A stretch of 64,000 nt of DNA, taken from positions 8,031 through 72,030 of the forward strand of contig CAKUTL010000003.1 of NCBI GenBank assembly GCA_934692295.1, given 5' to 3'. Shown piece by piece: positions 13,918-58,446 of this stretch; within the stretch, counting starts at the first letter, position 1; every line of letters begins with the position of its first letter. The notes below the pieces were generated by a model, which was not told where the DNA came from, made no database searches, and worked only from the letters and a program-made list of their open reading frames with translations. A program made the position numbers and the translations under genes. Source of the DNA: an uncultured Candidatus Melainabacteria bacterium. Lineage in GTDB: Bacteria; Cyanobacteriota; Vampirovibrionia; Gastranaerophilales; Gastranaerophilaceae.

Positions 13918-14649
13918 TTATTTTTTAATATCCATCCACCATTTTTTATCTTTATACAAACTTTTCCAGTACGGGATAGAGTTATCATATGGATTCATAT
14001 TTTTATGTGCAAATCTATAACACCCCATTGTAGCATAAGTATTTTGGACATATGGTCTGCATTGATTTACATAATAATTATCATTGGAAATATAGTAAAA
14101 CACATCATATCCCCATCTGTTTGGTCCTCTGCCAGGTCCATTAGTATCAACAAAAATCATCAACGAACTAGCATTTCCTGTTGAACCTTGATAATAAGGA
14201 AGAGTCAACAATGTTCCATTCCCAAGCATCAAAAAATCACCTGAAATAGCTTGCCAATAAGAGCGATCTCTTTTACCCGTAGTAAAAGAATTTATAGAAT
14301 AGTGGAAAAAACTTTTATAGTTATTTCTAAGAGGACTTTTTAAATAGTCAATCCTAGTAGCCCCAGCAAATTGAGAAGCAAAAACCTCTGCAATTTCCTG
14401 CACTTCATCCTTAGCCCCATCATATTTTATATTAAAAAGATTATCTAAAGAATCTAACTCCAATTCATTAGACGTCATTTTTAAAGCCTGTTGAATGAGA
14501 GAATCCGTTTTCTTAAATGAATTTTCTAATTCTTTAACCTTAAAATAATGAACTAAACTTGGAATAGTTAATGCAGACACAACTCCAATAATACCAAGCG
14601 TAATCAAAACTTCAGCAAGAGTAAAACCTGATTTAAACATTTTATTCAT
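13918..14649 (-). CDS. prepilin-type N-terminal cleavage/methylation domain protein (pilin/pseudopilin-like)
   Basis: Leader MNKMFKSG followed by FTLAEVLITLGIIGVV (Glu at +5). Start moved to ATG 14649. C-terminal DTNGPGRGPNRWGYDVFYY paralogue motif. Confidence 0.8.
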   Translation of the reverse strand: MNKMFKSGFTLAEVLITLGIIGVVSALTIPSLVHYFKVKELENSFKKTDSLIQQALKMTSNELELDSLDNLFNIKYDGAKDEVQEIAEVFASQFAGATRIDYLKSPLRNNYKSFFHYSINSFTTGKRDRSYWQAISGDFLMLGNGTLLTLPYYQGSTGNASSLMIFVDTNGPGRGPNRWGYDVFYYISNDNYYVNQCRPYVQNTYATMGCYRFAHKNMNPYDNSIPYWKSLYKDKKWWMDIKK

Positions 14650-14710
14650 TATACTTTTTGTTCTCTTTTGGACTACATACATTAGTAAGATAATACCATA
14701 AAATTAGATT

Positions 14711-24080: not shown

Positions 24081-25160
24081 TTATCCTTGCAATTGTTTAT
24101 ACAAATCAATTTGCTTTTGGGTTAATTTTGCAGGTAATACGATTTTTATTTTTGCATTCAAATTACCGTATCCTCCGGCTTTTTTAGGTAATCCTAAGTT
24201 TTTAAGTCTTAGCATTTTCCCGCTTGAAGTCATTGGAGGTATTTTTATACCAATATTTCCGTGTAAGGTTTGGATTTCTTTTTGACAACCTAAAACGGCT
24301 TCCGGCGGAGTAATTTCGATTTCTTTAGTCAAATCAGAACCTTTAATTTCGTATTCAGAATCTTTTGGAGAAATTATCAAATACAAATCACCTTTTTGAC
24401 CATAAACATCTGCTTTGCCTTCGCCTTTAAGTCTTACTTTTTGCCCTTCTTTTATTTCTTTTGGAAGTCTTACTTTTATAGATTTTGTTTCATTAATAAT
24501 CCCTGTACTTCCGCAAGCAGAACAATAACCACCATTTGGAGGGCATTGAGTGCATTTTCTCATATCATTGAATTTTACGGTGATAGGTTCGGATGAGAAC
24601 AAATCCTTTGCGGTTACATTCAAAGTTTTTGTTATATCCAAGTCTTCTTTAGGTGTGCTTTGAGTTCTTGTTCTGGAACCTCTTGAGCCTGTACTTCCGT
24701 AACTTCTTCTTGTATAACCTTGTTGAGCTGCACCCAAGTCGCCAAAGTCAAAACCGGAGAATCCTCCTCTTGCACCTCCAGCAGCAGCACCACCCATCAT
24801 ATCGCCAAACAATGAGCTAAAAAAATCAGAGAATCCGCCCATATCTTGACCATTGAAGTTAAATTGTTGATAAGCTCCACCTTGACCACCGCCAAAGTTA
24901 AAGTTTTCAAATCCGGGAGGTGGAGTATAATCTGCTCCGCCTTGCCAATTTGCACCTAAGCTATCATATCTTTGACGTTTTTGTTTATCGCCAAGAACTT
25001 CATAGGCTTCGTTTATCTCTTTAAATTTTTCTTCTGCTTCTTTTGTTTTATTTACATCCGGGTGATATTTACGAGCAAGTTTTCTGTATGCAGATTTTAT
25101 TTCTGCTTCGGTAGCTTCTCTTTTTACTCCCAGAGTTTCGTAGTAATCTTTATATTTCAT
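24081..25160 (-). CDS. CbpA/DnaJ-like J-domain co-chaperone
   Basis: J domain DYYETLGV...KYHPDVN, a G/F-rich linker, one CxxC...CxxCxG unit and a C-terminal substrate-binding region. Start set to ATG 25160, 8 nt after AGGAG. Confidence 0.85.
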
Positions 25161-25164
25161 AATC

Positions 25165-25203
25165 AAATCTCCTATTATAATGATAATATAAAATAGGAGA
25201 TTT
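25165..25203 (-). promoter_or_regulatory. 12-bp hairpin that base-pairs the SD of the dnaJ-like gene
   Basis: mRNA AAAUCUCCUAUU-15 nt loop-AAUAGGAGAUUU-GAUU-AUG. The 3' arm contains the AGGAG SD. 9 A-U and 3 G-C pairs. Confidence 0.5.
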
Positions 25204-25236: not shown

Positions 25237-25641
25237 TTATAATGATTTAAGTTTATCACTCATTTCTGAAATATCTTTTGACAAATTCTTTATGAAATTC
25301 TTATCTTCCAAGGCTTTCAATATTTCAGCTTTGTTACCCATTGCAATAGGTCTTTTGTTCTCAATCATCATAGCCGGATGAAGCATGGCAACTTCTAAAA
25401 GATGACTTGCTTTGTTCTTTTCGTCTTGGGAAATTGACAAAACTAAAGAACGGCAATATAAATTTTTATCTGTATTCTGCATAGGAACATTTATTTCCCG
25501 ATAATAAGAGTTATCAAGGATTTCTCTTCCTGCACGATCTTTAATTGTCTTGACCAAAATTTCTAACTTTTCTTGAAAATTCACTGGTTTAAGCCTTATT
25601 ATTTTTGCTTTATTTGTTTTTATATTCAGTAATTTTATCAT
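25237..25641 (-). CDS. hypothetical protein, 16 nt downstream of the RelA/SpoT-like gene
   Basis: 134-aa ORF with no recognised motif. Tight linkage suggests co-transcription. Confidence 0.55.
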   Translation of the reverse strand: MIKLLNIKTNKAKIIRLKPVNFQEKLEILVKTIKDRAGREILDNSYYREINVPMQNTDKNLYCRSLVLSISQDEKNKASHLLEVAMLHPAMMIENKRPIAMGNKAEILKALEDKNFIKNLSKDISEMSDKLKSL

Positions 25642-25657
25642 ATTTTTCCTTATTCGT

Positions 25658-27112
25658 CTATCCTACATATGCAATATTTAAAGGTTCTAAATGAGGTACA
25701 AAATTTACCATTTTTGCTTTTTGGTCTGCAACATCAGCTTCGTGGATTTCTCGCATATAATCTTTAGACAATTTTGGATTAAATCCATTTGGAAGTTTTG
25801 GTTGAGATGTTTTAACACCAAGTTCTCCATCTCGGTAGTAATCATAAACCTTTGAACCGTATTTGTCATATTGTTTTGCTTCTTCCGGAGCTAAACCTTT
25901 CAATGCGGATACGTATTCTTGGCTTGCGGGAGTTAGTGTTAATTTTTCTTGAAGTGCATCATATTTTACGTGTTCCCATTCTCCAAACGGACCAGTTCCA
26001 CGAACTTGAATTTCTCCATATGTACCGTCTTTAAATACAACATTAATTTGTCCCGTTGTATATCCCCCTGATTTGATTGCATCTTTAGCGGATTTTGGAA
26101 GATTTTCCAATCCGTATTTTGCAAGGTCTATATTTTCAGAACAACTGATTATATCAAATTTTTCACCTGTTGCAAGTTGAAATCTTTCAAACTGCCTAAT
26201 TTGATTATCTGAAAAATATGCAATACCGTCTTTACCCTTGTAATTGTTTACATCTCCAAGTCGTAGAGGTTCAATATTAGGATTATTTTTCAATTCGTCT
26301 ATCAAATCTTTTCTCATGCCTGATTTTTCAAGTTTTTCAATAGTTGTAACTTTTCTATCCAAAGCATCTTTCATGCCTGATAGAAGGAATTTATTAACAA
26401 CCGGATCAGATTGTTTTTCCGCTAAAGCACATTTGATTGCGTGTGAATATTTATCTGCAACAACTTGTTCTGTAGGAGATAGAGTTTCATTATTAAATAA
26501 TTTTTTAATAATAGATTTTTCCGATTTTGTTAAGGCTTTGCCTTCAAAAGTAAAGTTTTCAATAGTTTCAGCAACATCCTTTTTGGTCAAATTTGGAAGT
26601 TGAATTCTTCCGCCAATAGCATCTTGGATGTATTCTGCAGCTTGTTTATCTGTTGAAACATTTTGATTTAATTTTTTCATCCATTTGCAAACTTTTGAAT
26701 AAACAGAGTTTGCACCTTTTGGACGAACCCCGATTTCAATTCCGGAAAAGACTTTATCCAATTGAGCTTTTGCACTCGGAAGAGCTTTTTCGTAACTTTC
26801 ACTCAAACGGAGAGAAATATTACCAATTTCAGCCTGATGAGTAATATCTCCGGCTTTAATTGCATCTGAAGTAACTTCAAACGCAGGTCTATTTAGGGCT
26901 TGAGTTTGAACATTGACAGGAATTGTAATATCCGGTTTAACCCGATATTTTCTAATACCCGCTTCTGCTAATTTCTCTGCTGTATTTTCAGCTTGTGGTA
27001 ATGATAATAACTTTCCAACTTTTAAATTAGGCTTAGTTATCACTTCTGTAACAGGTTTACTTTCAACAATGGCTTTTGTTGCTCCTTGAAGCATTTTCGA
27101 CAAAATACGCAT
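25658..27112 (-). CDS. RelA/SpoT-homologue-like nucleotidyltransferase (divergent, with an insertion of about 175 aa)
   Basis: 484 aa. VRPKGANSVYSK (R130/K132/S136), DAIGGR (164-169), GGYTTGQ (349-355), GEIQVRG (366-372) and WEHVKYD (379-385) follow the RSH synthetase motif order. Confidence 0.6.
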   Translation of the reverse strand: MRILSKMLQGATKAIVESKPVTEVITKPNLKVGKLLSLPQAENTAEKLAEAGIRKYRVKPDITIPVNVQTQALNRPAFEVTSDAIKAGDITHQAEIGNISLRLSESYEKALPSAKAQLDKVFSGIEIGVRPKGANSVYSKVCKWMKKLNQNVSTDKQAAEYIQDAIGGRIQLPNLTKKDVAETIENFTFEGKALTKSEKSIIKKLFNNETLSPTEQVVADKYSHAIKCALAEKQSDPVVNKFLLSGMKDALDRKVTTIEKLEKSGMRKDLIDELKNNPNIEPLRLGDVNNYKGKDGIAYFSDNQIRQFERFQLATGEKFDIISCSENIDLAKYGLENLPKSAKDAIKSGGYTTGQINVVFKDGTYGEIQVRGTGPFGEWEHVKYDALQEKLTLTPASQEYVSALKGLAPEEAKQYDKYGSKVYDYYRDGELGVKTSQPKLPNGFNPKLSKDYMREIHEADVADQKAKMVNFVPHLEPLNIAYVG

Positions 27113-27143
27113 ATTAATTTCCCTTATTTTATCCCCTATATTG

Positions 27144-27175
27144 TATATAAAGTATTTTTGTTTTCGAAAATTGCC
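27144..27175 (-). promoter_or_regulatory. copy 4 of upstream motif (GGCAATT-N17-TTTATATA on the minus strand)
   Basis: Plus strand reads TATATAAA 27144-27151 and AATTGCC 27169-27175. 31 nt upstream of ATG 27112. Confidence 0.6.
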
Positions 27176-27190
27176 TAAATAAAAGAAAAA

Positions 27191-27211
27191 GGTATTACAA
27201 ATTGTAATACC
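27191..27211 (-). terminator. terminator of the wHTH gene
   Basis: GGTATTAC...GTAATACC palindrome followed on the minus strand by TTTTTCTTTT. Confidence 0.6.
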
Positions 27212-27246
27212 TCTTATATTATTCCATGTGTAAATGTGGTTAAAAA

Positions 27247-27471
27247 CTACTTAAGGCTAACTTTTACAGCAGGTCCTTTTTGAGCGATTTCAACTTTGTT
27301 TTCTCTAGCTAACCAGCCTAAACCTAAATCTGCAAAGTTTCCTTTTAAATCTAATTCTTTTTTCATTTTAGCAAAAGAAGTTGTTCCGTTTTGGTGTAAA
27401 TAGTTATAAATTTCTCCTGCTGAAAATCCGATTTGTTCTTCTAATGTTAAGTTAACTTTTTTTGATGCCAT
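27247..27471 (-). CDS. small winged-helix protein (DUF2582-like)
   Basis: 74 aa from ATG 27471 (AGGAGG SD 8 nt upstream). FSAGEIYNYLHQNG...LGLGWLARENKV pattern. Confidence 0.6.
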   Translation of the reverse strand: MASKKVNLTLEEQIGFSAGEIYNYLHQNGTTSFAKMKKELDLKGNFADLGLGWLARENKVEIAQKGPAVKVSLK

Positions 27472-27607
27472 GATTTCTTCCTCCTGATTTATTGTAGTCA
27501 TCACACTTTTTCGATACATTGATAATAGTTTATTTTAATATTTAAAACATCATTTCAATTACGTAGTTTGGCATATTATTTTATGGTAAAATACTACATA
27601 AGGAGTA

Positions 27608-32479: not shown

Positions 32480-32511
32480 TATATAAAGTATTTATATTTT
32501 AAATAATTGCC
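32480..32511 (-). promoter_or_regulatory. copy 5 of upstream motif (GGCAATT-N17-TTTATATA on the minus strand)
   Basis: Plus strand reads TATATAAA 32480-32487 and AATTGCC 32505-32511. 51 nt upstream of ATG 32428. Confidence 0.6.
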
Positions 32512-32685
32512 TTAGAAAAATATTAAAATAATAAAAAACAAGTTATGATTGAATTTCAAGGAATAAAATACAGCTTTACATTATGTAATAAATTGAATAA
32601 TGTAGGTCGGTATTTTTGCCCCAACATTAAATTTATTTCCTAGCCATAAGGAAGAAAAAATTCTAATTAAAAACTCAAACAAACT

Positions 32686-36742: not shown

Positions 36743-37570
36743 ATGAGAAAGCTGGTAATTTTTTTAGGGATAATTAGTGTTATAACTCAACCCGCACTTG
36801 CAATTGATGATGGGGAAGTTCATTTAGGAACAGTGGAACAAACCAAAATTGAATTGCCTAAAGTTGATTACAAGGGAAAAGATTCTTTAGTCATTAGCGA
36901 ACAACAAATTATGGACGAAATTGTCAAACTCCAAAAAGAAAAAGATATGGAAGACATAGACAATTTGTGGAAAGGAACGGTTGAAAATAACCAAGTTATC
37001 GGCTTTGCACTAAAAAAATTAGCAACTCCGGAAAGTCAAAGGAGAATACATTCTTCTCTAATGGCTAAGACCCTTTCTGCAATTGTATCCGGAGCTTCTT
37101 TAGCACCGGCACTTGTCGGAGCAGATTATATGGTTCAATCAGGATCTTATGCAGCAGGAAGAATTGCTCAAAATCTTTTAAATAAAAAAAATATTCCTCA
37201 AGAAGTTCCACTTACAGATACCGAACTTATTGAGTTGGCAGGACTTGTAGAAAATTTGCAAGACAAAATTATTAACGCATACTACAATTACAAAGGGAGT
37301 TTATCACAATTAAAAGAAATCCGTTCAAGAGAACTTTTGTATAGTAGAAATTACGCAAAAGCAATGGATGAAGAAGACTTTTTAGAAATATCAATTTCAT
37401 CCGCTCTATATGACGATATGCAAATTGAAGAAGCTAAATATGTTCAAATGTCAAAAAAATATCACTTAGAACTCCAACGACTTGCAGGGAAAAAAGTTGT
37501 TGAAAATTTGAACTTATACCAATACAACTATGATTCAGCATTGATAGGAGGAAACAAAGATGCTAAATAA
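36743..37570 (+). CDS. secreted coiled-coil protein, paralogue 1
   Basis: 275 aa from ATG 36743. Signal peptide MRKLVIFLGIISVITQPALA. Shares blocks NLWKGT..IGFALKKLA and LVENLQDKIINAYYNYK with the next gene. The track start 36551 overlaps the TPR gene and is rejected. Confidence 0.65.
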   Translation: MRKLVIFLGIISVITQPALAIDDGEVHLGTVEQTKIELPKVDYKGKDSLVISEQQIMDEIVKLQKEKDMEDIDNLWKGTVENNQVIGFALKKLATPESQRRIHSSLMAKTLSAIVSGASLAPALVGADYMVQSGSYAAGRIAQNLLNKKNIPQEVPLTDTELIELAGLVENLQDKIINAYYNYKGSLSQLKEIRSRELLYSRNYAKAMDEEDFLEISISSALYDDMQIEEAKYVQMSKKYHLELQRLAGKKVVENLNLYQYNYDSALIGGNKDAK

Positions 37571-39416
37571 AAAATTCCTATTTTTAACAATTGCACTTTG
37601 CCTATCTGGTGTAAACTTTGCAAATGCAGAAAACTTAACCCTAAAAGATGTTGAATTTCCAAAACCTCCGGCATATAGAGTCGGGCTTTCAGAAGTTCCG
37701 GAAACTCAATTTGTTCAAGCAAAACAAGAAAAACCCCAAATAGAAAAGACATATGCACAAATTGGAGATAACAAAGACTCTGCAATTACCGATATGACTT
37801 ATGCAGATTTGAGCATCAGCAAATTATCTAAAGAAATCGGAAAAGAATTAGAGTATGAAGAAAATGATATGGTTTCTGATTTAACTCTTCTTTGGCAAGG
37901 AGCTGCAACCCAAAGCGATACAATCAACTTTGCATTATACAAATTAGCTAACCCCGATGCAGATAAACCTGACAGCAAATCAATCAAAAAAGTACTATCT
38001 ACTATCGCAAGTATGTCAACCCTAGTAGGAGCAAGTATGGCTAGTCCTGTATTTGCAGGTTCTTCTTTAATCGGTGGGAATATTTTGAACATAATGTCCC
38101 AAGATACAAAGGCTCTTAACTATAAATATACTAGAGTTAATGATGCCGATATGATTATCTTGATTAGAAAGATTGAAGACCTTCAACAAAATGCAGTTAA
38201 TCTTTACTACGATTATATGTCTGCCAAAAAACAACTTGAAATGACCACAAAACTTGTTGAAGAAAGACAAAGAAAATTTGAACTTGCACAAAAAAATAAC
38301 GCCCCGAGAGAGCTTATTGTAATTACCGATGCGTATTACAGAACTGCAATCGACAAACAAAGAACTGCAAAATCAGACTTTTTCTCTAAACGTGCTGCAC
38401 TTGAACAATTTGTAGGAAATGAAACATTTGTACAATTTGAAAAAGAATTAGAAGCTAGAGAAAACGGCGAAACGATTCAACAAAATCAAGAAGAAACAAC
38501 TTCTGATAACCAAGAATATAACGACACAATCAAAAATGTAGAAAATTATACTCAAAATATTCAGTCGGAAACAAAACCATCTTCACTACCATCAGTTGAA
38601 GAAGAAGCACAAAATTCTTACATTGACGAAAAACCTGATCCAAACTTAGACAAAATGCCTGATTTGCAACCTTTAAATATTAAAGAGAACAAAAAATCAG
38701 AGCTTAAACCTACAATTTCAGGAGCTGCACCAATAGATGAATCTTTTGAACTCGAAAAAATAGCTTTTGGCAAGAAAAAAACGGAAATTTTGACAAATGA
38801 TTCCGAAGAAGAAGAAGAAAGTGTTCAACCTTCTAAAAAACATAAAAAAACACCAAAAGTAAAAAAAGAGAAAAAACAAAAAATTAAACCTGAAAAAGTT
38901 AAGAAAACAAAAGAACATAAAGTAAAACCTAAAAAGGAAAAAGAAGTTACAACAACGACGAAAAAGAAAAGTAGCGCAAGAAAATCTACGGTAGAAGAGC
39001 TTGAACCTCAATTTGAGTTCAAAAAACACGATAAATATTCAACTAAAGGCTTTATCTTTTTACACGGGCAAGATAAAGAAACTGCAAAGCGACAATCTCC
39101 ACATTATGCTTTGCCAAATCCTGAAGCTCAACAAGCTCAACTTCAAACCCTATATCCAAATCTAACCCCAAATACTACGACGTCTAAAAAGAAAAACAAA
39201 CGTAATAAACAAGAACAACAAACTCAGGAGCAACCGGTACAAACAACACCAACAACAAATGAGAATGGATTGCTACCGCTTACACCAATCGTTCACCCAT
39301 CACAAGTTCAGGAAAATAACATAAAATATAACCTTCCTCCACTGGATGAAATCAAGGCACCTGCTCTTGACGGGCATGGATACTCAATCCACGACTACGG
39401 AGATATGGCATTTTAA
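37560..39416 (+). CDS. secreted coiled-coil protein, paralogue 2, with a long Lys/Glu/Pro-rich low-complexity tail
   Basis: 618 aa. Signal peptide ending FANA. Blocks LLWQGA..INFALYKLA and IEDLQQNAVNLYYDYM. KKHKKTPKVKKEKKQKIKPEKVKK tail. Start overlaps the upstream stop by 11 nt. Confidence 0.7.
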   Translation: MLNKKFLFLTIALCLSGVNFANAENLTLKDVEFPKPPAYRVGLSEVPETQFVQAKQEKPQIEKTYAQIGDNKDSAITDMTYADLSISKLSKEIGKELEYEENDMVSDLTLLWQGAATQSDTINFALYKLANPDADKPDSKSIKKVLSTIASMSTLVGASMASPVFAGSSLIGGNILNIMSQDTKALNYKYTRVNDADMIILIRKIEDLQQNAVNLYYDYMSAKKQLEMTTKLVEERQRKFELAQKNNAPRELIVITDAYYRTAIDKQRTAKSDFFSKRAALEQFVGNETFVQFEKELEARENGETIQQNQEETTSDNQEYNDTIKNVENYTQNIQSETKPSSLPSVEEEAQNSYIDEKPDPNLDKMPDLQPLNIKENKKSELKPTISGAAPIDESFELEKIAFGKKKTEILTNDSEEEEESVQPSKKHKKTPKVKKEKKQKIKPEKVKKTKEHKVKPKKEKEVTTTTKKKSSARKSTVEELEPQFEFKKHDKYSTKGFIFLHGQDKETAKRQSPHYALPNPEAQQAQLQTLYPNLTPNTTTSKKKNKRNKQEQQTQEQPVQTTPTTNENGLLPLTPIVHPSQVQENNIKYNLPPLDEIKAPALDGHGYSIHDYGDMAF

Positions 39417-42777: not shown

Positions 42778-43488
42778 CTAATTCCAAGCTTTTGACCAGT
42801 TTGGATATGAATTGTGTAAATAATCCATATTATGATATTTCAAAATCCATTCAGAACAACGATAACCATTCCTACCATTACCGGAATAATGCGTATTATC
42901 ACAAGATGCTGCATCTGCCATTCCTCTAGCCCGAACAACCCCGCTATCTGACACATAAAAGGCAAAAGCATCTCGTCCAACAATATTAGGTCCACTTTGA
43001 CCATTTATATCAATATTTAACGGCCAATTATCGCTATATGCCCAACCGCCATTAGGAAGTCCCAGTGTAAAAGTCATTCCATTATTAAGAACCCCTGACA
43101 TTTGATAACGACCTGCAAATTCTCCGGTTTTCGTTTTACCGTCAAGCGATTTATACTCAATATCTCCCAAACAAGCCGTATGTTCACCCGCCCTACAAGT
43201 TTGAAGAACATTCATATTTGCTTTCAACAATGGAGGCAGAGTATAATTCAAAACATCCATTAAATAATTACTATTACAGTTTGACAGCCCTTCACACTCC
43301 TGCGAAATCTTTGTAAATCCTTGAGAAAAAATTGAAACAGCCTCTAAAACTTGTGATACCGTTTGAATTTCTTTATATTTTTGCACCAATGCAGGAATAG
43401 TAATTGCAGAAATGACCCCAATAATTCCAACTGTTATTAATACTTCTGATAACGTAAAACCAACTTTTTTCATATCTAATATATTCAA
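42778..43488 (-). CDS. prepilin-type N-terminal cleavage/methylation domain protein (pilin-like)
   Basis: MNILDMKKVG followed by FTLSEVLITVGIIGVISA. C-terminal NIDINGQSGPNIVGRDAFAFYV motif. Confidence 0.8.
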   Translation of the reverse strand: MNILDMKKVGFTLSEVLITVGIIGVISAITIPALVQKYKEIQTVSQVLEAVSIFSQGFTKISQECEGLSNCNSNYLMDVLNYTLPPLLKANMNVLQTCRAGEHTACLGDIEYKSLDGKTKTGEFAGRYQMSGVLNNGMTFTLGLPNGGWAYSDNWPLNIDINGQSGPNIVGRDAFAFYVSDSGVVRARGMADAASCDNTHYSGNGRNGYRCSEWILKYHNMDYLHNSYPNWSKAWN

Positions 43489-43545
43489 TTTATAATTAAT
43501 ACCTTAAATTTTCTATATCTTTTTAACTTTCATGATTTATAATCT

Positions 43546-44316
43546 TTATTTTAAAAAACTATCCCAATAATTTTGGTCTTCATTATAAGGATTTATATTT
43601 TTTATTGCATAATAAGCACAAGCAGTTTGGGTTTCAAATGAACCATTAGGATTACAATACTCTTTGCCTGTACGAGAAAAATTATATTGCCAACGGGTAT
43701 CAGTAGTGTTGTTTTCATCTGGTTGCCCCATAGGAATTACTGTTCCTTTTGTTGTAAATATAAATATAAAAAAATCATATCCATACCTGTTTGGACCACC
43801 CAGACCATTGATATCTACACACACAATTGGACCATTTTCATTTGGATAAGGGGAATCATTAAAGATGTACATTCTACCAGAGGAATCTACTTTAAAACCA
43901 CTGTTATCGCAAACATTTGTAGTTATCTTTCCCGCCATTGTACGAATTGTATGTACCTTTTGAATTTCAAATTGGTTTGTTGTAACTTTTCCACTATTCG
44001 TTAAAGATGCCAAATATGTTGGAAAAATTTTATGTACAAAAGTACTCCAATTACCAGATAAAGAGGCAGTATAATTAGAATTTCGATCGGCTCTTTCAGT
44101 AAATTCAGAGATTGTAATTCCATAATCATTGTAAAATCTTTTTGAAATTTGATTTAAATCAGAATAAGTTTTTTTTAGTTGAACCCGAAGTTCGTATGTT
44201 TTAACTTTATGAATAAGTGTTGGAATTGTTATTGCAGCGACAACCCCAATAATTCCAACGGTTATTAATACTTCTGATAACGTAAAACCAAAATTTTTCA
44301 TACTTAATATATTCAA
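43546..44316 (-). CDS. prepilin-type N-terminal cleavage/methylation domain protein (pilin-like)
   Basis: MNILSMKNFG followed by FTLSEVLITVGIIGVVAA. C-terminal VDINGLGGPNRYGYDFFIFIF motif. Confidence 0.8.
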   Translation of the reverse strand: MNILSMKNFGFTLSEVLITVGIIGVVAAITIPTLIHKVKTYELRVQLKKTYSDLNQISKRFYNDYGITISEFTERADRNSNYTASLSGNWSTFVHKIFPTYLASLTNSGKVTTNQFEIQKVHTIRTMAGKITTNVCDNSGFKVDSSGRMYIFNDSPYPNENGPIVCVDINGLGGPNRYGYDFFIFIFTTKGTVIPMGQPDENNTTDTRWQYNFSRTGKEYCNPNGSFETQTACAYYAIKNINPYNEDQNYWDSFLK

Positions 44317-44379
44317 TTATATGTGAATATAATTATAAGTCAATACCCAAATATGTCCATAATATAAGATAATAAAATT

Positions 44380-56187: not shown

Positions 56188-58446
56188 TTACTGAATAGTT
56201 TCCTTATTCGGATCTTCAATATCGATAACCTGTGCATACTCTAGCACTTGAGGTTTTGTTTTTGCAGTTGATTTTGTCTTTTTGTTTGAAACAGAAACTT
56301 CTGAATCATCTTTCGCTGGAGAAAATGCTATTTTTCTCTTTTCTTCATCGTCTTTGTTTTGATTTTTGCCTAATCTTTCAGGATTTTTTATTTCCATTTT
56401 TTTATAAGTTACAGTTGTACCTTTTGTATCAAAAGCTACGTTAAAACCAAAGTATGTTGTCTGACGAACAAAGTCGTAACCTAATGTAATTTTCAAATCG
56501 TCAGGTCCGATTGAGAACAAGAAAGCATTTTCTTGGAACATTTTACCGTTCGGAGCATCATCTGAAAGGTTAATATTTCCTGCCCAACCTACAGACAAAT
56601 ATTTGCAAAGTCTAAACGCTTCTGACAAATAAACGCTCTGGTGTCCATATCTATATGTATCATATCTTGGTAGTGGAGTATGGTCAGAATATCCTGACAA
56701 GAAATATCCAACATCTTGCATCCAGTTTTTGTATTGCAAGTGCAATCTAGGACCAACTCTACCAATAAACTGAGTATCACCTGTACCATACACCGCAGCG
56801 GAACCTTGCATTACAATACCGAAGTTTGCGGCAATTCTTCTTTCTTCATCAGTATAGCCCCAAATATGTTGATTTAATTCTGCCATATATCTGAATCTTG
56901 TAGTAGAAATACCACCGGATCTTAGCCTTTCACCGTAGAAGTTTCTATCATTATCTTCCATCAAACCAACACCAAATCTGTGGCGGAAACCAAGATTCAT
57001 ACCTTTTGTTAAGAAATCTTTTGTAGTATAACCTCTGTCGTAGTAAACTTCTGCCATATACTTAGGCATTTGACGACCTAAAAACCATTCATCCATAAAT
57101 GAATTAGACGCATATTGCAAATACAAGTGATCATCTAATCTTTGAATACCTTTCAAGAAGAAAATATCCGCAGCAGAAGCATAACCTAACTCTGTTCTGT
57201 TGAAAGTATTAAAATACTTAACCGCACCACCAAAACCAAACTTGTGCTGATAGTTCAAAAATGGAATAGCTTTAATTACAGAGCCGCCAGGACCACCAAA
57301 TACGAACCCAGGACCTACAAACATACCTACTTTTCTTCTTGTTCCAAATTCAGGATAGTTTGCTTCAAAATAATCACGCTCTTTGTTTGTATAAGCAGTC
57401 AAACTCGGCCATCTAAATAAGTATTTACCGTCTTTATAAACTTTTATACCTTTAGCTTTAAATACATCATGATTTTTTCTTGCATCTACATAAATTGAAT
57501 CAATATCAAGTCTAACATTATTACCTGTTGGATCTCCGAAGAATAATGCTTGTGCTTCACGAGGAACAATCATATTTTGGAAACGAGGACCAACCATTCT
57601 TGACATCAAACGATAAACTTGAGATTCTTCAGAATGAAAATTACCATCATGAAGAACAATCAAACCATCTTTTTGAATACCTTTTTTAGCATCCATAATA
57701 GTTGTTTCAGAAATGGTTTCCATGTTATCCATAACCATTGTTTCTTCATTCATATCAACTTCAAGATAACTACCCTTAGTTGGCATTCCATCTTTAAACA
57801 CAATAACATTACCGATTCCTTTTAAAATATTAGAATCTTCATTGTATGTCATTTTATCTGCAATAATTTTTACATTTTGAGGAGGTAAAACAAGAATAGG
57901 TCTGCCTGTTGCAACCATATCCCCTGTTTCATCATCGTAATTTACATTCTCAGCATCTAAAATTAACTGTCTTTCTGTAACTTCCTCATTAACTCCGCCT
58001 TCCAAAGAAATAGCATCGTCAGAAATCTCTGAAGAAGTTTCTGATTGAATAGAATTAGTCAAATCAGATTCAGAAGGAAGAGTTTCTGTTTGTTCTTCTT
58101 GAACTTTTTGCTTTCCCCAGAATTTAAACTTGTTTTCAGAAGTCTTTTGGGTGGTCGAAGTTTTTTCTTGCATCAACTTGTTAGTAAGTTTTACACGCAT
58201 TTGTTTTACAAACGGCATATTACTACCTTCAAGTTCTTTTGTAGATAACCCCATTCCACTGCTATTGTAGTCAAAAGCATAATCGTAATCATCCGGAGTA
58301 CCCTGAACATCAGGAATCATATTTGACAAAGAAGAACGGAAAATTACATCCTGAACATTTGAAACAGGAGAATCTGCCAAATCCTCTGCATAAGAAGAAT
58401 TAGAAAAGGCTAATATTAAAACTGCTGCTAATAAATATTTTTTCAT
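56188..58446 (-). CDS. lptD: LPS-assembly outer-membrane protein LptD-like
   Basis: 752 aa with a signal peptide. OstA-like N-terminal region (ADKMTYNEDSNILKGIGNVIVFKDG). Aromatic-rich beta-barrel-like C-terminal two thirds. Confidence 0.7.
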   Translation of the reverse strand: MKKYLLAAVLILAFSNSSYAEDLADSPVSNVQDVIFRSSLSNMIPDVQGTPDDYDYAFDYNSSGMGLSTKELEGSNMPFVKQMRVKLTNKLMQEKTSTTQKTSENKFKFWGKQKVQEEQTETLPSESDLTNSIQSETSSEISDDAISLEGGVNEEVTERQLILDAENVNYDDETGDMVATGRPILVLPPQNVKIIADKMTYNEDSNILKGIGNVIVFKDGMPTKGSYLEVDMNEETMVMDNMETISETTIMDAKKGIQKDGLIVLHDGNFHSEESQVYRLMSRMVGPRFQNMIVPREAQALFFGDPTGNNVRLDIDSIYVDARKNHDVFKAKGIKVYKDGKYLFRWPSLTAYTNKERDYFEANYPEFGTRRKVGMFVGPGFVFGGPGGSVIKAIPFLNYQHKFGFGGAVKYFNTFNRTELGYASAADIFFLKGIQRLDDHLYLQYASNSFMDEWFLGRQMPKYMAEVYYDRGYTTKDFLTKGMNLGFRHRFGVGLMEDNDRNFYGERLRSGGISTTRFRYMAELNQHIWGYTDEERRIAANFGIVMQGSAAVYGTGDTQFIGRVGPRLHLQYKNWMQDVGYFLSGYSDHTPLPRYDTYRYGHQSVYLSEAFRLCKYLSVGWAGNINLSDDAPNGKMFQENAFLFSIGPDDLKITLGYDFVRQTTYFGFNVAFDTKGTTVTYKKMEIKNPERLGKNQNKDDEEKRKIAFSPAKDDSEVSVSNKKTKSTAKTKPQVLEYAQVIDIEDPNKETIQ

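Follow-up and report, generated by a model that had tools for sequence, protein, structure and literature searches.

A predicted RelA/SpoT-like pyrophosphokinase and its co-evolving small partner at a fixed chromosomal position in Gastranaerophilales

Toxic RelA/SpoT homologues (RSH) are a fast-growing field. RelA/SpoT toxin domains have been known in polymorphic toxins since 2012 (PMC3482391), and Tas1/Apk1-Tis1, of a type VI secretion system (T6SS), and Apk2-IapK, of a MuF prophage, are described (p)ppApp-synthetase toxin-immunity pairs (PMC11782079, PMC12226406). In the toxic small alarmone synthetases (toxSAS) FaRel, FaRel2, PhRel, PhRel2 and CapRel (Jimmy et al. 2020), the small alarmone synthetase (SAS) forms a conserved bicistron with a small neighbour gene, the partners being non-homologous between subfamilies; such a conserved bicistronic arrangement is itself an indicator of toxicity (PMC7229694). 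A survey of ~600 exported alarmone synthetases (EAS) reported varied RSH domains on varied delivery modules, and some of these enzymes are toxic although their product is (p)ppGpp (Ahmad et al. 2025, PMC12691689). Here we analyse a gene pair that resembles these systems in a 64,000-nucleotide stretch (hereafter the window) of contig CAKUTL010000003.1, from an uncultured Melainabacteria bacterium of the Gastranaerophilales, an uncultured lineage of human and animal gut relatives of cyanobacteria. The initial annotation of the window had described a 484-residue open reading frame (ORF) followed after 16 nt by one of 134 residues, and both are present, each with its own ribosome-binding site:

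25658 to 27112, minus strand: RSH484, 484 residues, predicted SYNTH-fold pyrophosphokinase-like protein (ORF, Syn motifs, PF04607 matches of spliced cores, AlphaFold2 model, Foldseek)
25237 to 25641, minus strand: p134, 134 residues, predicted neutralising, immunity-like partner (ORF, AAGGA ribosome-binding site, 16-nt gap)

Systems that pair an RSH toxin domain with a small cognate protein are already known. New here are the clade, traced so far only to Melainabacteria and adding about 500 cluster representatives to the field, the insertion in its acceptor-site loop, the partner family, the giant carrier proteins (up to 7567 residues) without a known delivery domain, and the fixation of the pair at one position in 24 species.

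With the Tas1 and Apk2 systems, the RSH484 family shares an RSH-fold domain at the C-terminus of large proteins and a small non-enzymatic gene immediately downstream; a fast-evolving, cognate-specific partner is common to both, and the known immunities of those systems occlude the acceptor site. Unlike them, the family carries no PAAR/Rhs, MuF, LXG or other recognised carrier domain, the copy in the window stands alone at a fixed core-genome position, and the fold of p134 is unrelated to PDB entries, including that of Tis1. With toxSAS it shares the SAS plus small neighbour gene in a conserved bicistron, but it is syntenic and lineage-restricted instead of mobile and patchy, RSH484 is much larger and has insertions, and relatives are fused to giant proteins. 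None of the EAS carriers, namely Sec, type III secretion (XopAD), T6SS, type VII secretion, extracellular contractile injection systems and MuF, was found in the family, and the main text of the EAS survey makes no mention of Melainabacteria, Gastranaerophilales or cyanobacteria (PMC12691689). In the 2012 survey, polymorphic toxin systems were rare in cyanobacteria (PMC3482391).

Searched as a single sequence, RSH484 matched nothing in Pfam, NCBIfam or the PDB sequences, so that its identity as an RSH protein had to be addressed with family-level, spliced-core and structural evidence. Profiles of the family, full-length or spliced, likewise found nothing significant among the PDB sequences, and the assignment therefore rests on the broad Pfam hidden Markov model PF04607 (RelA_SpoT) together with structure. 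Natively, 23 of 48 family members matched PF04607, weakly (best E 6e-6). Once the inserted segments were cut out, retaining residues 88-188, 281-300 and 344-400, four of five spliced family cores exceeded the gathering score of 27 bits (29.5-34.7 bits, E 1e-6 to 2e-8), while the spliced core of RSH484 itself reached 20.5 bits (E 6e-4) in a contiguous alignment to positions 2-91 of the 113 in the profile. The distant relative P0232, which lacks the first of the two insertions described below, passed the threshold natively at 30.7 bits, and its best PDB sequence match was RelSeq (1vj7), aligned on YGRPKxxxSxxxK and KAxGYxxxx...EIQIR. The PF04607 search proposed in the initial annotation thus fails for the native protein and succeeds for four of the five spliced cores and for native P0232.

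For the structural comparison proposed alongside it, the AlphaFold2 model of RSH484, built from the 48-sequence alignment, has a mean predicted local distance difference test score (pLDDT) of 88.3 and a predicted template modelling (TM) score of 0.84, with only residues 1-43 disordered. The five best PDB neighbours in Foldseek are all RelP or RelQ (probability 0.85-0.98; TM-score ~0.5 normalised to the target), and the best viral models in BFVD are phage proteins annotated as RelA/SpoT (probability 1.00, E 2e-3). The insertions keep the E-values of these fold searches modest (2e-3 to 0.1). Tas1 is found at rank 22 of the PDB search, and FaRel2 and CapRel structures are absent from its top 50. 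On this model-based evidence, the protein adopts the SYNTH (pol-beta-like nucleotidyltransferase) fold and is a very divergent RSH of an undescribed subfamily, in line with the synthetase first suggested from its motifs.

All five of those motifs occur in the canonical order: Syn1 (VRPKGANSVYSK, residues 129-140), DAIGGR (164-169), GGYTTGQ (349-355), GEIQVRG (366-372) and WEHVKYD (379-385). Among 48 homologues with 37-86% identity to RSH484, residues R130, K132, S136, K140, D164, R169, G350, Y351, T353, Q355, E367, Q369, G372, H381, Y384 and D385 are invariant (48 of 48), and G167 and R371 are at least 90% conserved. In a six-sequence alignment that extends to relatives at 29-35% identity (alignment A5), every motif residue is invariant, G167 and R371 included. 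Judged from these alignments, the conservation is far beyond chance. The family therefore carries the signatures of an RSH SYNTH domain: R-x-K-x3-S-x3-K of Syn1 (ATP phosphate binding), the catalytic motifs D-x2-G-x-R of Syn2 (D164, G167, R169) and E-x-Q-x-R of Syn4 (E367, Q369, R371), and G-Y-x-S-x-H of Syn3 with G350 and Y351 invariant and with threonine (T353) and glutamine (Q355) as fixed variants of the serine and histidine.

Residue equivalences were taken from the alignment of P0232 to RelSeq and transferred through alignment A5. R130, K132, S136 and K140 of RSH484 correspond to R241, K243, S247 and K251 of RelSeq; K347, Y351 and Q355 to K304, Y308 and H312; and E367, Q369 and R371 to E323, Q325 and R327. 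In FaRel2, the R/K/S/K set binds the ATP triphosphate, the Asp binds Mg2+, the donor adenine is contacted by a Gln and by the G and R of DxxGxR, and the acceptor base is stacked by the G-loop Tyr (PMC11782079). Since every functional residue of the FaRel2 type is conserved in RSH484, catalytic activity should hold.

The spacing between R169 and G350 is 180 residues in RSH484 against ~38 in RelSeq. A single insertion of about 175 residues had been proposed here; the extra length is real, but it is divided into two insertions around an invariant strand, NNYxGxxGxxYF. Segment by segment, the protein reads as follows (all within 25658 to 27112):

26981 to 27112, minus strand: residues 1-44, basic (pI 10) N-terminus predicted to be disordered (pLDDT ~30 over residues 1-43, pI, hydropathy)
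26750 to 26980, minus strand: residues 45-121, N-terminal beta-hairpin and long helix (DSSP on the model)
26600 to 26749, minus strand: residues 122-171, core part 1, with Syn1 (ATP triphosphate site) and Syn2 (Mg2+/adenine site) (invariance, P0232-RelSeq alignment)
26264 to 26599, minus strand: residues 172-283, insertion A, helical, ~110 residues (DSSP helices 177-276, alignment A5)
26213 to 26263, minus strand: residues 284-300, strand NNYxGxxGxxYF (N290, Y291, G293, G296, Y299 and F300 invariant)
26078 to 26212, minus strand: residues 301-345, insertion B (alignment A5; in all family members examined, 45-75 residues)
25937 to 26077, minus strand: residues 346-392, core part 2, with K347, G350-Y351, Q355, E367-x-Q369-x-R371 and H381/Y384 (RelSeq alignment, invariance)
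25661 to 25936, minus strand: residues 393-484, C-terminal helical region (family-wide conserved Y415, Y418, R427, E430 and P438)

The strand at 284-300 would be strand beta3 of RSH enzymes, the equivalent of the 'KDYI' strand of RelSeq; it is part of the spliced core that aligned without a break to PF04607 positions 2-91. Insertion B sits between beta3 and beta4, in the region that forms the pyrophosphate-acceptor site (the G-loop as defined in the FaRel2 work, PMC11782079). Insertion A appears to be specific to the subfamily of the window, because it is missing in P0232, intermediate in the L029 type and ~110 residues long in the window branch. The domain at residues 45-121 accompanies the RSH module in the closest giant proteins, where the profile match starts at position 34-42 (P0192, P0194). 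The Pfam searches also bore out the reported absence of hydrolase, TGS and ACT domains, and RSH484 has neither a signal peptide nor a hydrophobic segment.

This anatomy can be set against that of RelP and RelQ (SAS1/SAS2; PDB 6fgj, 6ex0, 5f2v, 2be3), the best structural neighbours. Like them, RSH484 lacks hydrolase, TGS and ACT domains, has just one SYNTH domain and keeps the Syn1-Syn5 order. Unlike them, it is double the size, at ~11-13% identity, with an extra N-terminal domain, insertions of ~110 residues after Syn2 and ~45 residues in the G-loop, GYTTxQ in place of GYxSxH, and an obligate small partner gene.

The small downstream partner noticed in the initial annotation proved to be constant. 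In each of the 38 loci examined, the RSH-domain gene is directly followed by a p134-like ORF. These loci cover the window and 24 syntenic loci as well as the giants L025-L030, L031-L036 (reached starting from distant p134 relatives), L037 and L038; the gap is 10-35 nt in nearly all orthologues of the window pair. Across the 18 complete loci, pairwise divergences of RSH484 and p134 are strongly correlated (r 0.94), and the correlation persists after regressing out both flanking genes (partial r 0.887, permutation p 2e-4). The clusters formed by the two proteins coincide with each other and differ from those of the flanking genes. Such coupling is the pattern expected of a binding partner that tracks its cognate enzyme, and it agrees with what has been published on IapK and other binding-type immunities, which are fast-evolving and cognate-specific (PMC12226406). 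The locus thus has both the conserved toxin-antitoxin (TA)-like operon with a small partner seen in toxSAS and the adjacent downstream small gene, co-varying with the toxin domain, of effector-immunity pairs.

In p134 itself, conservation is not of an enzyme-like kind, G102 being the sole invariant residue across 16 orthologues and paralogues. Its AlphaFold model (pLDDT 87.7) shows a helix, four antiparallel strands and two further helices, and Foldseek found nothing in the PDB, which includes the Tas1-Tis1 complex 6ox6, better than E 0.09; a Tis1-like protein, a hydrolase and a type III chaperone were rejected as identities for p134 on this ground. The family has no consistent Pfam match, and DUF7879 was also discarded (4 of 73 family members match it, all below threshold). 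Low residue conservation and the lack of a structural or Pfam relative are as expected of a binding-type immunity protein. From these comparisons, p134 is an obligate, co-evolving and probably non-enzymatic partner of RSH484.

Searched exhaustively with the family profile, 1.84 billion cluster representatives yielded 503 relatives of RSH484, 393 of them at E <= 1e-10; in the clusters checked, no source name went beyond 'hypothetical protein'. Length and architecture were counted in 148 of the 503 representatives. Their median length is 670 residues, 47 exceed 1000 and 11 exceed 2000, and in 55 of the 78 representatives longer than 600 residues the domain ends no more than 60 residues from the C-terminus. 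P0192 (1124 residues) and P0194 (7567 residues) carry the whole 45-480 module, insertion A included, at their C-terminal end. The presence of the same domain on the C-termini of giants, each with a p134-like gene, provides independent support for the toxSAS-like or effector module that had been suggested, with due caution, for the pair in the window.

Many of the giants have Gly/Ala-rich hydrophobic segments 300-600 residues from the N-terminus. Two proteins with an internal RSH-like domain may be multi-effector proteins: L025 (1884 residues) has a SprT-like zincin match (HExxH; 24.5 bits, sub-threshold) and L027 (2336 residues) a borderline HD phosphohydrolase match (21.9 bits, just sub-threshold).

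The distribution of the family was scanned in one genome per prokaryotic species. With one exception, relatives of RSH484 occur only in Gastranaerophilales/Melainabacteria or in metagenome-assembled genomes (MAGs) labelled 'uncultured bacterium'. The exception (L010, contig CAVAPR010000022.1) is a contig, placed in a 'Candidatus Methanomethylophilaceae archaeon' MAG, that carries the same syntenic block, in which helicase, wHTH, RSH, p134, DnaJ and SSB are 83-99% identical in amino acids to the window; its archaeal assignment is most likely binning contamination. A phage origin was rejected, since viral contigs yielded no relatives and PHROGs gave no matches. In 24 species the order is the same: a helicase gene on the divergent strand, then a winged-helix (wHTH) gene, RSH484, p134 and a DnaJ-like gene. 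The two immediate neighbours, which had been called a wHTH gene and a J-protein gene, are supported by Pfam, and two candidate transcription signals lie upstream of RSH484:

27247 to 27519, minus strand: DUF2582 winged-helix gene, upstream neighbour (Pfam 61.5 bits, synteny)
24081 to 25166, minus strand: DnaJ-like J-protein gene directly downstream of p134 (Pfam DnaJ and DnaJ_C; conserved in 24 species)
27140 to 27167, minus strand: promoter-like site TCGAAA-16-TACAAT upstream of RSH484 (consensus match only)
27187 to 27215, minus strand: terminator-like hairpin between the wHTH gene and RSH484 (13 pairs, AT-rich)

Identity to the window across the syntenic loci is 70-99% for the flanks, 33-96% for RSH484 and 33-98% for p134. 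Mean pairwise amino acid distances in the 18 complete loci are 0.25 for the helicase, 0.14 for the DnaJ-like protein, 0.48 for RSH484 and 0.59 for p134. Both members of the pair are under purifying selection (omega 0.07-0.15), at ~2-3 times the flank values (0.04-0.06) in three of four pairs and at similar values in the fourth, the closest pair.

Taken together, these results lead us to favour, at about an even chance, an active pyrophosphokinase toxin domain with its cognate neutralising protein, the pair in the window being a free-standing, chromosomally fixed version of the toxin-neutraliser cassette found at the C-termini of the giants. Mechanistically, RSH484 would take the beta,gamma-pyrophosphate of an ATP held by R130, K132, S136 and K140, with Mg2+ at D164 and E367, and would attach it to the 3'-OH of an acceptor whose base stacks on Y351. 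Candidates for this acceptor are a purine nucleotide, with (p)ppGpp or (p)ppApp as the product, and the CCA end of tRNA. The invariant K347, aligned with RelSeq K304, which we take to be an acceptor-site residue, leans towards a nucleotide. We discarded prediction of the acceptor from the Syn motifs as unreliable, because motif swaps in Apk2 left its specificity unchanged (PMC12226406). In turn, p134 would bind RSH484 and block a substrate site, in the manner of Tis1, IapK and ATfaRel2, which neutralise other toxic RSH enzymes; neutralisation by site occlusion is documented (PMC11782079). If toxic, the pair would be a new toxin-immunity pair and a hint of an unknown delivery route.

Several observations weigh against a toxin-neutraliser pair, and most of them argue at the same time for its main rival, a regulated, non-toxic alarmone synthetase that makes physiological (p)ppGpp, with p134 as its regulatory subunit (inhibitor or activator), in a stress operon with the J-protein gene. 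The pair occupies one core-genome position in 24 species, between housekeeping flanks conserved at 70-99%, and is under purifying selection, both atypical of mobile TA and polymorphic-toxin loci. The nearest solved structures are the non-toxic (p)ppGpp synthetases RelP and RelQ, not Tas1, FaRel2 or CapRel. RSH484 has no trafficking domain (PAAR/Rhs, LXG, MuF, XopAD, DUF4157 or signal peptide), ten giants searched with Pfam and PHROGs have no known delivery domain, and none of RSH484, p134 and the wHTH gene matched a defence system in PADLOC (RSH484 had one sub-threshold match). The toxin reading also has to accommodate the absence of relatives on viral contigs and 16 of the 78 large relatives in which the domain is internal, with more than 300 residues after it. 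The promoter-like site before RSH484, with no terminator-like site ahead of the DnaJ-like gene, fits a stress operon. Nevertheless, we hold a physiological synthetase to be the less probable of the two, a serious but tentative alternative. An obligate small partner gene is not a feature of known housekeeping SAS, and RelQ, RelP and RelV, at ~200-250 residues and with no dedicated partner, differ from RSH484 in both respects. The domain and partner recur as a module on giant multi-domain proteins, mostly at the C-terminus, the amino acid distance of the pair is 2-4 times that of the flanks, and the bicistronic SAS arrangement signals toxicity (PMC7229694). Should the pair nonetheless be non-toxic, it would represent a new kind of partner-regulated alarmone synthetase.

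A different possibility shares the toxin-neutraliser logic of the reading we favour and differs from it solely in the site where the enzyme acts: a TA or abortive-infection module of FaRel2/CapRel type that works inside the producing cell and would pyrophosphorylate the tRNA CCA end or drain ATP once p134 has been lost through displacement or degradation, as might happen during phage infection. The bicistron of toxin followed by small partner, with its short gap in nearly all orthologues, and the lack of an export signal or hydrophobic segment in RSH484 agree with such a module. Still, we regard it as unlikely, since the invariant K347 leans to a nucleotide acceptor (given the role we presume for K304), tRNA-targeting toxSAS structures are missing from the top 50 fold neighbours, inheritance is vertical and not patchy, and there is neither a defence island nor a PADLOC match. 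In its favour, a macromolecular substrate could find a binding surface in the N-terminal domain and in the insertions close to the acceptor site, for which the N-terminus of FaRel2 offers a comparison (PMC11782079). Finally, an RSH-fold domain that has lost catalysis and serves only in structure or binding would suit the sub-threshold score of the native sequence and the large insertions that break up the fold. It is highly improbable, as donor-site, metal and acceptor-stacking residues, which pseudo-enzymes usually lose, are invariant or nearly so in the 48 sequences and in the relatives at 29-35% identity.

A more speculative arrangement, which we rate as slightly less likely still than the intracellular module, takes in the conserved DnaJ-like gene. 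RSH484, p134 and the 361-residue DnaJ-like protein (DnaJ361) would form a tripartite switch fixed in the core genome, in which the stability of p134, or its binding, depends on the J-protein acting with DnaK, so that proteotoxic stress frees the RSH enzyme. Because insertion B remodels the G-loop, the product could even be a novel one, other than (p)ppGpp, (p)ppApp or pyrophosphorylated tRNA. If true, this would be a domesticated toxin module coupling chaperone load to nucleotide signalling. A J-domain also occurs in a giant: residues 1365-1416 of P0194 (L037) score 45.6 bits, where the gathering score is 27.8, and form a genuine J-domain, which echoes the conserved J-protein gene beside the pair in the window. 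Only one of the 148 representatives has such a domain, and a functional link between J-domain and RSH was kept merely as a low-probability idea.

Regarding transcription, terminator-like sites lie after the wHTH gene and then only past dnaJ, with none between p134 and dnaJ, so the DnaJ-like gene is possibly co-transcribed with RSH484 and p134. The terminator-like hairpin at 27187-27215 also has a shorter plus-strand form (10 pairs, 27190-27212). In front of the DnaJ-like gene, whose probable true start is the ATG at 25160, a perfect 12-bp inverted repeat, AAATCTCCTATT-N15-AATAGGAGATTT, spans 25165-25203 (minus strand), its 3' arm including the Shine-Dalgarno sequence. As RNA, the hairpin has a folding energy of -13.7 kcal/mol (z -2.67), and it is kept in ~17 of 22 orthologous loci, where some C-to-U changes in the arms preserve G.U pairs. 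It has no Rfam match, and Rfam searches around the locus gave nothing above noise; it looks like an RNA-thermometer-type element that would sequester the dnaJ ribosome-binding site.

The promoter-like region of RSH484 overlaps one copy of an AT-rich direct repeat of 58 nt (27144-27201 and 32480-32537, 74% identical). The 5' part of this repeat, TATATAAAGTATTT-N3-TTTT, occurs four times in the window with up to two mismatches, against 0.11 occurrences expected by chance. No other repeat was found at this place, and it may be the motif of which the initial annotation assigned copy 4 to the RSH484 gene.

The 64-kb window contains no second RSH484 copy and no canonical Rel/SpoT, and its other genes are of a housekeeping kind (FeoAB, SerA, MurT, MlaE, SSB, O-antigen ligase-like). 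A neighbouring 1294-residue gene matched GajB in PADLOC solely through its generic UvrD-helicase core and is 70-96% conserved, so it was treated as housekeeping. Four large ORFs have no Pfam match at E <= 1e-5: 44731-49065 (plus strand, 1444 residues), 56188-58446 (minus strand, 752 residues), 37560-39416 (plus strand, 618 residues) and 51777-53537 (minus strand, 586 residues); no RSH-like or p134-like domain was found in them. Lastly, a direct repeat of 119 nt at 43372-43490, 44200-44318 and 14539-14657 (83% and 62% identity) lies inside ORFs of ~236-256 residues, which are probably paralogous genes.

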